From: Eledone cirrhosa
Taxonomy: Eukaryota
Length of the DNA stretch: 64,000 bases
Direction: 5' to 3'
NCBI GenBank assembly: GCA_964016885.1
Contig: OZ024741.1
Span: 82,832,001-82,896,000, forward strand
Shown: positions 15,253-63,793 of the stretch, piece by piece
How positions within the stretch are numbered: the first letter of the stretch is position 1
Layout of the letters: each line of letters begins with the position of its first letter
The notes under the pieces: model-generated
Told to the model about the DNA's origin: nothing
The model's database searches: none
Seen by the model: only the letters and a program-made list of their open reading frames with translations
Translations under genes and position numbers: made by a program

Positions 15253-15650
15253 TACCAACTCACTCAGATTAGGCTGCACAGCCGTTAATATGCATAAGGA
15301 AAGTATATACTTTCAAACGTTCAATCGACTGCGAGGAAGGTATACAGTGCTGATGACAGCTAATAAGCTAGAAATTCGTTAATCGTTCCTTTGACAGTGT
15401 TGAAAAAAATGGCAACGATGGTTGCCGAACACTGTACGGCTAATAACTCGGGCTGTTTGTTTACAAACAAACCGAGCATTATAATAAATATTCGGTAAAC
15501 CCATACGTACATATATATGTATGCATGTATGTATGTACATACATAATACTTTTCGTCTGTATACATACATGTATATACGTATACATACTTATATTTAAGT
15601 ATCAGCCGTACTAAGAGTTAGAAATGAAATTTCATTTTTTCCATTTACAT
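15253..15650 (+). mobile_element. Non-coding HHR-bearing repeat unit (family A), solo copy
   Basis: Colinear with 52335-52740. Ends at a (TA)n tract. Confidence 0.8.
15344..15386 (+). ncRNA. Type-I hammerhead ribozyme motif, family A (decayed stems I and III)
   Basis: CTGATGA c-agct-aata-agct-a GAAA. Homologous position to 52435-52477. Confidence 0.6.
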
Positions 15651-16424
15651 ATATATATATATATTCTTATTTATATATATATACATATATACATATTTAT
15701 ATATACACACACACACACATTTATTTATTTATATATATATATATATATATATATATATATATATATATATATATATATATATCGCCTGCAGATGTACAGA
15801 ACCTCCATTATTTAACACTAATATATTGTCTCTTAGTGAACTGTTTTATTATTGTCTGTCACATGACAATGGAATCTTGGCAACAATTCCTGGAGAATGA
15901 TGTTAACAATATTTAACTTATACATTTTTCAATACTGAATATTTCCCCAATTTTCTATAAATTCCCTCTTCTGGGAATGGCGAAATTATTGCTAGTCAAA
16001 CAATAATGCAGTAATTATATTTATCCGATTTTATTATACTTGTGAATGGAGCCATATACATACTCATATATAACATATATATATATATATATATATATAT
16101 ATATATATATATATATATATATATACAGATGAACACATACACACTTATGGACACACAATCACGTATATATATATGTATATATATATGTATATATATATAT
16201 ATATATATATATATATATATATATATATATGTATACTTATATAACATCTCTCCCTCTCTCCTCCTCTCTCTCTCTCTCTATATATATATATATGTGTGTG
16301 TGTGTGTGTGTGTGTGTGTGTGTGTGCCTATATCTGTGTGTCTATGTGTATATATATATGAGTCTATAGAGATAATTTACGAACATATAATATACGGTAT
16401 CTAGGAATCTAGATTGTTTAAATC

Positions 16425-16780
16425 TTGGAGGGGGAGGCATATGAGGAGTGGAGAGGAGGCATATGATGATGTAGATGAGGGGGGGGGGTGCTGTAAGAGG
16501 ATGGGGAGGCGTAGGAGGAGGTGGAAGAGGTGGATGTGTCGTAGGGGGTGGGATGGTGTAGGAGGAGGAATACGAGGAATGTGGAGGGTCGTAGGATGGG
16601 GAGGAGGAGTCGTAGGAGGATGGGGAGGTGGAGGTGTAGTAGGAGGAGGAAAACGCGGAGGAGGAGCATGTGGAGGAGGAGAATAATGGGAGGAGGAGGA
16701 GGAGGAGGTGCAGAAAGAGGGGAGAAGGAGGAGGAAATGGTATGTGGTGGTTGTGGTGGCGGCGAAAAAGAAATCTATAA
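16425..16780. repeat. GGA/purine-rich low-complexity tract
   Basis: Imperfect (GGA)n. The Gly/Arg/Pro-rich ORFs are compositional. Confidence 0.9.
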
Positions 16781-17149
16781 GGAATAGTTTTCATATCATA
16801 GATAAGAATCAAAAAATATATTGATAATAATGAAATAATGTAGCGTATGAAGTTATATGAATACAAGGACATTTAAACTCAGTGCCACTTCCCGTAATTC
16901 AATCCAGGCACGGTATGTTCTAGAAAAGCTTCATCTTTTCTTATAATTTGTAATTGGAGGAAGCAGCCTGTTGATACTCTAGAGTGATAGACAAAATGAA
17001 ATGAACAGTTAAACGAGTCGGAATGGACACCAAACTTCTACAAAAAAATATGCCTCGACGATTCTGTCAAATAGTGTGTATATATATATAATTCTGTATA
17101 TATATATATTCTTTTGGGTTTGCTTTTATCCTTCTATGTTGTTCACTTG

Positions 17150-59829: not shown

Positions 59830-62279
59830 ATGCTGATCAAAGACCAACTCCCTTTGTCAACTAAGAACATACCAATACCATCCAAAAATACATATAAAAA
59901 TTATTGATCGACAGAGTAAATTCCTTTATCAATAGAGTGAGATGGAGGACATTCCATTATGATAAAAACAAATCTAACAAGGTTAATAATACTAACAAAT
60001 TTGACTCCTTCGGCTTTAAAACCTTTAGAAGCCCGCCTCATAACACACTACTAAACTCCTTTGAAAATGACCTAATAAAACTAGTTAAGAATATTAAATA
60101 CAAAAAGCACCGTAATAAAAACAACACCTTCTTAAACAAACTTAGCACCTCTATTAATGTTTTCAAAACTAGTAATAAAAGTATTGTACATGCAGACAAA
60201 ACGAATAACATATACAGCCTAGATTATAATACTTACAGAAAGTTTATATATAATGAACTACATAAAAGATACAAGAAAACCACTATGAGAAACTTAGGGA
60301 TATTAATATGGAAGGCTATACTATAGTGTCCAAACTAGGACTCCAGAGACATACACAACCATATACCCCAAACCCCCCTAGATTCTCTCTGAAGGACCAT
60401 AAGGAGGACTTCATTAGCAACCGCTCGATTAGACTTATTTGCCCTTCCAAGTCTGACATTGGCATTATCAGTAAGAAAATTTTAGATAAAATCATCCCAC
60501 AGATTAAACACAAAATATACCTTAAACAATGGGGAAATACAGGTGAAGGGATTGAATGGTTCAAAGATATCAAGGATAGCAAGGATAAAACATTTATTCA
60601 ATTTGATATCAATTCATACTACACCTCTATTTCCCCTATCCTATTAAATAAGGCACTTATCATGGCCATGGACAATAGTGACCTGACTAGACCCCTGATT
60701 GATGTCATACTTGCGGCCCGTAAAACAGTAATCACCTTTGAAGACCAATTATGGACCCGCAAGGATACACAAAACAACTTCGACATAACCATGGGATCTA
60801 GTGACTCGGCGCAGGTCACTGATTTAGTCGGCCTATATTTACTTAACGAAATCCATAAGGACCTTCCATACCTCAACGGTGGTTTGTACCGCGATGATGC
60901 ACTTCTACTTATAGATTATAAAAAAATTAATATAGAAAGAACTAGAAAACTAATGCACAAGACATTCAAAAACTATAAACTTAGTATTACCATGGACAAA
61001 AACACTAAAAACGTTAACTTCCTGGACGCCACCCTCTACCTAGACTCACAGATATATGCACCTTTCCACAAACCTAATGAAAAACTCATTTACGTAGTTA
61101 CCAAGTCTAACCACCCTAGATCTATATTAAACTCTATCTCTAAGGGAGTATCTAATAGAATTTCTAATATATCCTATGACGTAAACATATTTAGCAAAAA
61201 CTCGCAATATTATATTCAGGCATTAGCTAGATAAGGCCATAATATAGAGATCGAGTTCCTACCTACAAAAACACATAGCTACAACATTATTTCGCACATG
61301 TCCATGAGGAAATTTAGTAATAGGAATAGCAACCACACACACAATAATACGGAAGATGCAAACAAAAATAACCCACACCACAGAAATTACCATAGTACCA
61401 TGAAAGGAAACAACTCACCAGACATAAAAAACAGAAATAGAAGAAGAAATAATACATTTTTCAACCCTCCTTTCAATCTAAACGTCTCTACCAACCTACC
61501 TAGGGCTTTCTTCTCACTACTAGATAAAAACTTCCCATCCGGCCATAAGTACCATAGCCTTTAAAACAAAAACACTATTAAAATCTCCTACTCTACTACG
61601 CCTAACATAGCATACCACATAGCTAGTAGCAATAAAAGAAAAATTAATTCTTACTTCCAGCAAACTAAATCACAACAGACGATAAACCTTCAAAATAACA
61701 TTATAGCATCTAACCCTAATATCAATAGAAATAATTGTAATAACACTAGTGTAAACAATAACGCTGGGAACGTCAACCCACATAACCCCATAGCTACCAT
61801 CCAGACATCTACACAACATAATAACCGGCAGACTAACACCCAGAATAATTGTAACTGTAGATCAAATAGAACCTGCCCTTTAGATAAAAAATGCTTAACC
61901 AAGGATATCATATACTCATGCACAGTCACAACTAGCAACTCTTCTGAAACCTATATAGGCTCTACTTCAAACTGCTTCAAAACCAGATACAATTCGCACC
62001 TCCACTCTTTCAAAAAACACAGTCTAGCCAACTCCACTTCTCTATCTAGCTACATACACTATCTAAAAACTAAAAATAAACCATATACACTTAAATGGGA
62101 AGTGATAGGTAACGCGTCATCGTACAAACCACCTAATAAATTGTGTAACCTCTGTCTAATTAGAGACCCATACTATCATCTTCTCAAACCATAACCTCCT
62201 TAATAAAAAATCAGAAGTGTTCGCGTCATGCCAACACCGCTTCCGACACTCCTTCCAAAACTTTAAACCCAGTATATAA
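59830..62279 (+). pseudogene. PLE polyprotein: reverse transcriptase plus GIY-YIG endonuclease (frameshifts and stops)
   Basis: STKNIPIPS, ADKTNNIY, LKDHKEDF, QFDINSYYTSI, MGSSDSAQVTDLVG, GLYRDDAL, SNHP, FFNPPFN, CNCR...CPL...IIYSC...YIGST...FKTRYNSH, CNLCL, LNKKSE. Confidence 0.92.
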
Positions 62280-63744
62280 CAATGTCAGACTTGAACCAGT
62301 CACCACCTCTAGCAGTAATCGTCAGGACATACCTTACACCTCATCTCCACACCCATTAATCCTCTTTAGCCCAAATAGTGACATCCTCCTAGTACCTTTT
62401 ACCTTGGAGATATCCCCATGTACTTCTACTTTTGGTATATTGGCCTTCAACTGCTTAGACTACATTACACCAATGTACACTTTAAGCAAGGAATTGGTTG
62501 TGCTAACATTGTCCTGTGTATGTAGTGCCATCATTGGATAAATGGAAGATTAAGTAATTAATTTATTAACATAAAAGAGCTATACAATCTATATGCTGAG
62601 TGCAATGAATTATGTACAGGTGATGTACGAGTTATAAATACATGTATGACTTGATGGTCAGATCAGTGTCTTTGTGAGTGAGAAGTGATCTCAGGACTAC
62701 CCTAGTGATATTTAACTTTGCCATGCAATCAGACATGCAGTGACCCAGAACTTACCAGGAGTCATATATTGAAGTGATTCTAATAAGACCCTGCCAGGTC
62801 CTGCGGGTAGACTACACTTACAAAGATCACTGATTTGGAGATCTGATTCTTCATGTGGAATGTTCGGTGGGGGCACTCTATGATAAAAGGTATTCATCCT
62901 AATATGAACACCTTTAGTACTTCTCGATAGAATACACTGTAATTTATAGATAAGATACTTAAATTTAGAAATTGTTTATAACCTTATATGATGAGAACTC
63001 ATTTGAGACACAATTAATGCACTTTAGGATAATAAATTTAACTATAGAAATCAGCTAGTTACCTCCCCTTACGCATTACCTCCCCTTAATCACACACACA
63101 CTTCCGGAATATAATACGATGTCATCTCTCACAACAAAAACAACCTGATCTATGAATCGAATTAAGGAACGACAAACTGTGATGTTCCACCATGGTTCAC
63201 CAGGCACTCAATGTTGTATCATCGTGGATTGTGTGATGGGCATGTAGTCTATAAATTGCGTTTCCTGGATTGTGAGAGTGGTGTTGTGTACGAGGACAGT
63301 GGTGCTGCTTTGCTTCTCATTTGTAATATTTTTAATATTTTTGGTGTTTCTGCACACACGGGCTTCTATATCGTACAGGTGTGTGTAAATAATGTTTAAC
63401 CAGTTCACCCCCATGATGCTCTTGCCTGCTTTGACTGCTTGTTTTACTTGTAACAATCTGCCGCACTATAATCTTGTATAAATAGGACACGCGTGCATGC
63501 CACAGGTGTGACTATTGCATACACTGACTACTCCAAACTTTCCTTTTGCTTTATGTTATTTGACTGCCTATGTTTTATTTTAATTTTAATGTTGTCCTTT
63601 AATATGACTGTAATCTATGTATGTAAATTACCATGCTACATGATTATAATGGATGTCAACCCACTGTGGGTCAATATATACATATGTTTCTATATGTCTC
63701 TTGTGTTGAAAAGGAGGTCAAGTATGTTAAAAATCACTGAATAA

Positions 63745-63793
63745 TTGCTCCAAAGACTCCAAACCTCGGTTTGGAAGAAACAATTGTAAGCAG
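63745..63793 (+). ncRNA. Minimal type-I hammerhead motif, family F (core decayed or variant: CCAAAGA)
   Basis: ttgct CCAAAGA c-tccaaac-ctcg-gtttgga-a GAAAC aatt GTA agcag. Palindromic ACAATTGT stem III. Confidence 0.65.

Follow-up and report, generated by a model that had tools for sequence, protein, structure and literature searches.

We report on hammerhead ribozyme motifs in a 64,000-nucleotide stretch of the Eledone cirrhosa genome (contig OZ024741.1, positions 82,832,001 to 82,896,000; the whole stretch is referred to as the window), which belongs to a 3.0-Gb animal assembly rich in (TA)n. The motifs are real and mostly explained as hammerheads of Penelope-like elements (PLEs) and retrozymes with a published variant, a U·U mismatch at positions 10.1 and 11.1 at the base of stem II. 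We consider it likely that they represent high-copy type I hammerheads at PLE 3' ends (in the Hydra clade, families F and D and probably also C; in a CCHH-type clade, family B) and in a tandem repeat without open reading frame (ORF; family A), and that they would self-cleave slowly and mostly as dimers. This reading builds on the observed architecture, the mismatch states shared at family level, the place of the motifs behind PLE ORFs, inverted 5'-truncated partner copies and (TA)n insertion sites.

Hammerhead motifs and their family states

The type I layout of stem I, core, stem II, GAAA box, stem III, UH and stem I' is present at all ten sites listed in an initial annotation of the window, with three helices and an open helix I. 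Five copies are intact (B, C at 48748, D at 42704 and both copies of E), and five are defective (15344, 52435, 27864, 39159 and 63745). A descriptor that demands an intact core and leaves position 4 and the 10.1/11.1 pair free retrieves exactly the five intact copies; the reversed window gave none, and 100 block shuffles averaged 0.16 (maximum 2). Since single copies fold no better than shuffled sequences (z from -1.70 to +1.73), the evidence lies in copy number and architecture and not in folding energy.

For each family, the 30 best of approximately 40 scored genomic matches were evaluated. These sets are query-biased, and the window's own copy is among them; what they reveal is which states are shared among copies, not genome-wide proportions. 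The six family searches gave 655, 533, 1371, 159, 1473 and 1359 first-look candidates. First and last stem II bases are U·U in 30 out of 30 best matches in each of the families A, C and D and in 29 out of 29 scorable matches of family E, where one further locus was unscorable. Family F exhibits C·A in all 30 matches. Subfamily A', to which the A copy at 15 kb belongs, combines C·A with an intact core in all 20 fetched best matches, of 40 listed. In family B the two bases are A and C (30 out of 30), which corresponds to an extra A followed by G10.1-C11.1, and B alone among the window families has a Watson-Crick pair here. Thus, as had been proposed, the mismatch is a family state and not decay, and a G-C consensus did not emerge in the mismatch families. 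The initial annotation had assigned the 10.1/11.1 states correctly. From its count of six families, five of them with a non-canonical pair, the mismatch in A, C, D, E and F stands, while B is accounted for by the extra A and a G-C pair, and the fragment of a seventh family, G, had been missed.

In A, A', B, C, D and E, the core C3-U4-G5-A6-N7-G8-A9, G12-A13-A14-A15.1 and U16.1-H17 is complete in typical copies. In family F, C3-C4-G5 (U4C) was found in 29 out of 30 best matches, the exception being the window copy; the CUGANGA box formerly ascribed to this family is not present. The U4C change also marks F2, a sister family of F, and family G has A4 in 40 out of 57 matches together with U·U. 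The remaining core bases are kept in F, F2 and G. Anchor matches of G, 21 in number, occur in 15 of 80 sampled stretches, and loci of this family were noted at L181, L193, L197, L203, L206, L226, L238 and L344 (L numbers denote collected loci).

The 80 stretches, each 10 kb long and equally spaced over the genome, comprise 799,800 called bases. They contain 63 intact motifs in 34 stretches and none in reversed sequence, with inverted pairs counted twice and low-scoring D-type motifs below the cut. At 10.1/11.1 these motifs show U·U (29), A-U (15), G-C (8), U-A (4), A·G (3), the extra-A type (2), C·A (1) and G·U (1), and hence G-C is a minority state in this genome. Position 4 is U in 45, A in 15 and C in 3 motifs; when it is limited to U or C, the sample gives 36 matches. 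Extrapolated from 63 motifs in 0.8 Mb, approximately 2 x 10^5 intact motifs are expected genome-wide, and the U4C and U4A families extrapolate to about 10^4 to 10^5 copies. Over all collected loci, 411 motifs fall into 17 clusters of at least two copies with unrelated stems, plus 16 singletons. One variant core shared by all families, as had been suggested earlier, does not exist: at least eight states occur at 10.1/11.1, and they change within single lineages, with U·U and C·A both present in A, and C·A, A·G and U-A all present in the F lineage. Beyond the window families, two large hammerhead families have A10.1-U11.1, a long helix II and a palindromic loop III (L187, L206, L212, L258, L260). 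A·G occurs also in an unrelated family (L201; noted at L201 and L199), some copies of which carry U4C.

Rfam hammerhead models at gathering cut-offs gave no match on 14 sources containing intact copies. A scan of the window had no hammerhead among the top 150 of 274 E-value matches, and scans otherwise returned microsatellite-driven miRNA noise or nothing. In the sources tested, the motifs score below the Rfam cut-offs, so that strict descriptors would grossly undercount them. This is in good agreement with the earlier prediction that strict searches miss these motifs, and with the final alignments of Perreault et al., in which 10.1-11.1 mispairs were excluded.

Within lineages, structure is retained while sequence changes, which we read as signs of selection; the G8U in 7 of the 30 best A matches runs counter to this. 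Between C subfamilies, stem I is altered from A-U to C-G with its structure kept, loop II varies freely, and U·U is kept in 8 out of 10 aligned copies, a small and related sample. F and F2 share 78-83% DNA identity in two longer matches; helix III differs at two bases with the palindrome kept, 10.1/11.1 has changed from C·A to A·G, and U4C is retained. Nine loci with an open 832-aa frame were fetched; eight contain the motif, seven with A·G and one with A·A, and all eight have U4C. The palindromes described in the initial annotation for stem III or its loop were broadly right, except that in C a 4-bp stem III carries an 8-nt loop of which CTAG forms just the middle, and that the D segment is not a perfect palindrome. 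Computed energies of helix III self-duplexes (in kcal/mol) are -4.8 for A, -7.2 for E, -6.4 for F, -11.1 for F2, -1.6 for D and +2.2 for B, and helix III of C and G is computed to form a weak 4-bp monomer hairpin as well.

Carrier elements

The earlier view that the motifs are PLE-borne or retrozyme-like was borne out, with F and D behind Hydra-type ORFs, B behind a CCHH-type ORF and A in tandem units. One carrier in the window is a PLE at 59493..63930 (+), which consists of an inverted 5' piece, a pseudo-long terminal repeat (pLTR) from stem II on, a broken ORF (59898-62191, +), a 1.5-kb 3' untranslated region and a 3' pLTR. Its ORF shows the motifs RWR, DKT, CxCX5C, CxxC and CxH as well as a GIY-YIG endonuclease at the C-terminus, without CCHH. 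Pfam lends weak support (GIY-YIG 0.0019; no match for the reverse transcriptase, RT). The element ends in hammerhead F at 63746..63792 (+), with U4C, C10.1·A11.1 and, in this copy, an additional G5A. Half an F copy at 59545-59580 was absent from the initial annotation. In the Hydra-type elements, (TA)n insertion sites, the pLTR and an inverted 5'-truncated partner were all found. An assignment of F to the Naiad clade was rejected, because the C-terminal endonuclease and the motifs fit Hydra. A search with the F endonuclease against its own genome gave 54,428 first-look candidates, which together with many open 832-aa frames reveal a large, partly young Hydra-clade expansion. In addition, 23 endonuclease clusters, mostly Hydra-type, were seen in about 2 Mb of collected sequence, and one Hydra-type family (L397-L410) has a pLTR hammerhead with U10.1-A11.1.

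At locus L265, a Hydra-type ORF with the same motifs as F precedes family D by 2.2 kb. In the window, hammerhead D at 39159..39205 (-), with G12U and a stem II change, forms the 3' end of a Hydra-type element, of which an endonuclease remnant with CxCX5C linker is left 2.15 kb upstream (41356..41615, -); the copy at 42704..42750 (+) has an intact core and represents the inverted partner. Judged by sequence motifs, the carriers of F and D are Hydra-clade PLEs, and that of C is probably one too. All five independent loci with one Hydra-type ORF (CxCX5C), which had been selected as C loci, also carry a long C copy, in the same orientation as the ORF in one and inverted in four. The window holds a defective copy of subfamily C2 (27864..27914, +; U·U, A13G) and an intact short C copy that begins at stem I (48748..48798, +; U·U) next to an inverted fold-back copy (48680..48747, -), which had not been listed before. 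Directly behind the C2 copy, an F-related pLTR fragment was observed (28002-28196, 76% against 59584-59780 and 63797-63995).

Family B terminates a PLE distinct from the Hydra-clade ones, and in 16 out of 30 loci a CCHH-type endonuclease precedes it by approximately 400 nt. Its window copy (24689..24723, -) is a minimal hammerhead with a 4-nt palindromic helix III, and the broken ORF at 25117..27532 (-) comprises RT (RVT_1, 5.9e-14) and a CCHH-type GIY-YIG endonuclease (3.5e-07). Family A consists of tandem units of 422-433 bp with one type I hammerhead each, in arrays of six and eight units, and a PLE ORF was looked for in these units and not found. The tandem spacing was seen at L272, L278/L014 and L280; the majority of A loci consist of monomers or of inverted pairs. 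In the window, A is represented by a U·U copy with G8U (52435..52477, +) and by a decayed A' copy in which loop III and the first stem I pair are broken (15344..15386, +). Copies of E share 2.1 kb of upstream sequence, in which there is no PLE ORF; both window copies (56606..56663 and 58893..58949, +) are intact with U·U. Family G is present as a 3' fragment at 7575..7628 (-), missing from the initial annotation. At L344, a Hydra-type endonuclease was observed about 940 nt upstream of a G copy (single locus). A G-to-ORF link at L278 was dropped, as that G copy is a fold-back fragment.

Apart from these elements, the window contains an inverted 620-bp repeat of 92% identity (6550-7170 and 34856-35468). 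Broken ORF pieces with endonuclease and RT at 43746-48103 (+), 930-1400, 11573-12136 (-) and 53443-54099 (-) are, as we assume, LINE-like (long interspersed nuclear elements).

Predicted cleavage, family C start sites and alternative explanations

By analogy with characterised hammerheads, a U·U or other 1x1 mismatch would stack under G12-A9 and weaken helix II while still permitting cleavage. In a tandem transcript, two copies would pair with each other through helices III that are palindromic or 1-2 bp long, cleavage could trim element RNA from multimeric precursors, and A units may form circles as a retrozyme that PLE proteins mobilise. Within a short RNA, a motif on its own would mostly stay uncut, and short copies would consequently be retroposed with the whole motif.

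The 5' ends of family C bear on this last step. They were determined for 29 copies that had been retrieved solely with sequence 3' of the cut, two rows being one locus and one row the window copy. Within this set, 22 start 38-48 nt before the predicted cut, that is, at stem I, three start 10-37 nt before it and four further upstream. Long C copies have a TATA box 30 nt ahead of the first stem I base; in the C2 copy of the window (TATA box at 27833..27840, +) the distance is 31 nt, with a different spacer. We infer that the C hammerhead opens an RNA made from the pLTR promoter and is copied uncut, but stalling of RT at the fold or a master copy that was itself short could account for the pattern as well. 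Several C junctions show a G that is absent from long copies and possibly copied from a cap (loci L331-L360 and L361-L385; no rigorous count). A seemingly long common upstream region of C turned out to be (TA)n. No 5'-end pile-up at the motif was seen in F, D, E, B and A, for which the queries contained upstream bases and are hence biased.

Several points weigh against the reading as slowly self-cleaving, PLE-borne motifs. A genomic footprint of the predicted cleavage is missing, as no start at the predicted cut or less than 10 nt away from it occurs among the 29 C copies. A core base is altered in all typical copies of F (U4C) and G (U4A). In family A, G8U occurs in 7 out of 30 query-biased best matches, and a core-defective sublineage may therefore have spread. 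The clade assignments are based on motifs and not on trees, the link of C to its ORF comes from loci chosen for C, and a link of E to an ORF at L270 was rejected since the adjoining ORF belongs to another family. As a separate observation, A copies with the shared G8U, expected to disable the core, were recorded at L001, L006/L007, L009, L013, L023 and L026.

It is conceivable, if rather unlikely, that the U4-changed lineages (F/F2 and G), and perhaps others, do not cleave usefully and keep the fold for another task in transposition, such as template recognition by RT, RNA pairing via helix III or fold-back priming. U4C is fixed in F and F2, including 8 of the 9 fetched loci with the open 832-aa frame, and U4A marks 40 of the 57 G matches; one lineage drifts between C·A, A·G and U-A, A has its G8U sublineage, no C copy begins at the cut, and inversion junctions often lie inside the motif. 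Moreover, U4C considerably lowers activity in vitro (PMC3088659), and Craig et al. (PMC8557442) regard the function of PLE hammerheads as unclear. Yet in F, F2 and G the rest of the core is retained along with stem I and the UH site, the helix III palindrome was preserved through a double change, and U4C still supports viroid infectivity (PMC3088659). A related and more far-reaching proposal appears to us possible, though doubtful: Hydra-clade PLEs would have expanded hugely with relaxed hammerheads (fixed U4C or U4A and free mismatches at 10.1/11.1 in recently active families), C would be transcribed from the TATA box of the pLTR into a short capped RNA that has the hammerhead at its very 5' end and would undergo retroposition without being cut, and the fold would act as a transposition signal or a tuned-down switch and not as a working cutter.

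Two further explanations fare worse. In a slipped register, the extra nucleotide known to lie between A9 and 10.1 would be the 5' U, with an A-U pair closing helix II and no mismatch. An extra base at this place is a conserved PLE feature according to PMC4209133, and the second base in A and E is an A that could pair with the last U. In C and D, however, the second base is U and leads to U·U again, A' would yield A·A, and the next pairs are broken by the slip, which renders this register very improbable. Chance matches or mutational decay of G-C copies would be compatible with the five decayed copies out of ten in the window and with single copies that fold no better than shuffles. This explanation is refuted by the copy counts and can practically be dismissed, as essentially all best matches of each mismatch family carry the mismatch and reversed controls gave no match. 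Overall, slow cleavage of PLE and retrozyme hammerheads, mostly as dimers, remains the reading we prefer.

Comparison with known hammerheads

All papers below are cited for the parts of them that were available. The U·U mismatch is already published, contrary to the initial suggestion that this core might be new: it is documented in PMC3088659, PMC7229834 and File S2 of PMC8557442. As the headline variant is known, the main value of the Eledone motifs lies in a natural series for what PLE hammerheads do. Sister families differ at 10.1/11.1 and U4 while still transposing, so that the distinction between a cutter and a structural signal becomes directly testable. Potential novelty lies in C·A, A·G, U4C and U4A as fixed states of large and in part young families, and in the start-site pattern of C. 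A word-matching literature search turned up neither C·A, A·G or U4A nor any survey of hammerheads in cephalopods or start site at stem I; C·A, A·G and changes of position 4 may still appear in Lünse et al. (RNA Biol 14:1499), in the supplement of PMC7229834 or in figures, to which the search did not extend.

Perreault et al. 2011 (PMC3088659) reported a natural U10.1-U11.1 variant, cited as the best-tolerated mispair, noted U4C in a viroid and rejected 10.1-11.1 mispairs from the final alignments. There, U·U and U4C are rare single cases, whereas U4C and U4A are fixed in large families here. Related work further includes PMC6765202, PMC4918200, PMC7936874 and PMC6155905, and retrozymes have been tied to PLE pLTRs (bioRxiv 10.64898/2026.07.22.740005).

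Families F, D and C resemble the Hydra-clade hammerheads of Craig et al. 2021 (PMC8557442), with a type I motif near the 3' end, a PLE with C-terminal endonuclease and (TA)n targets. That clade is defined by RWK, DKT, a CxCX5C linker and GIY-YIG in C-terminal position without CCHH, and its hammerhead motifs are listed as canonical; our count over the 25 distinct Hydra-clade families in File S2 gives 14 U·U, 1 U·C, 3 G·U and 7 G-C. U4 is invariant across the 25 listed families, among which neither C·A nor A·G occurs, in contrast to the states described here. Moreover, those elements are mostly shorter than 3 kb, whereas in F, D and C the endonuclease and the motif lie 1.4-2.4 kb apart.

Family A, a candidate non-LTR retrozyme, resembles the non-LTR retrozyme HHR_Amex2 of the axolotl (Cervera and de la Peña 2020, PMC7229834), a tandem non-coding repeat with a type I hammerhead in which U·U lies beneath a 4-bp helix II and helix III is short and palindromic. 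The units of HHR_Amex2 measure about 350 bp compared to 422-433 bp in A, and A has a second subfamily with C·A. Approximately 60,000 U·U motifs were described in the axolotl, with 22% cleavage in vitro within 1 h as monomer and more as dimer. Family B, finally, agrees fully with the PLE minimal hammerhead of Cervera and de la Peña 2014 (PMC4209133) in its extra base after A9, a conserved PLE feature, as well as in G10.1-C11.1, the 3-bp stem I and the 4-nt palindromic helix III. Such minimal hammerheads cleave weakly and only as multimers. Among the 56 representatives in the supplement of that study, U·U occurs in one, from Hydra magnipapillata, and position 4 is changed in none.

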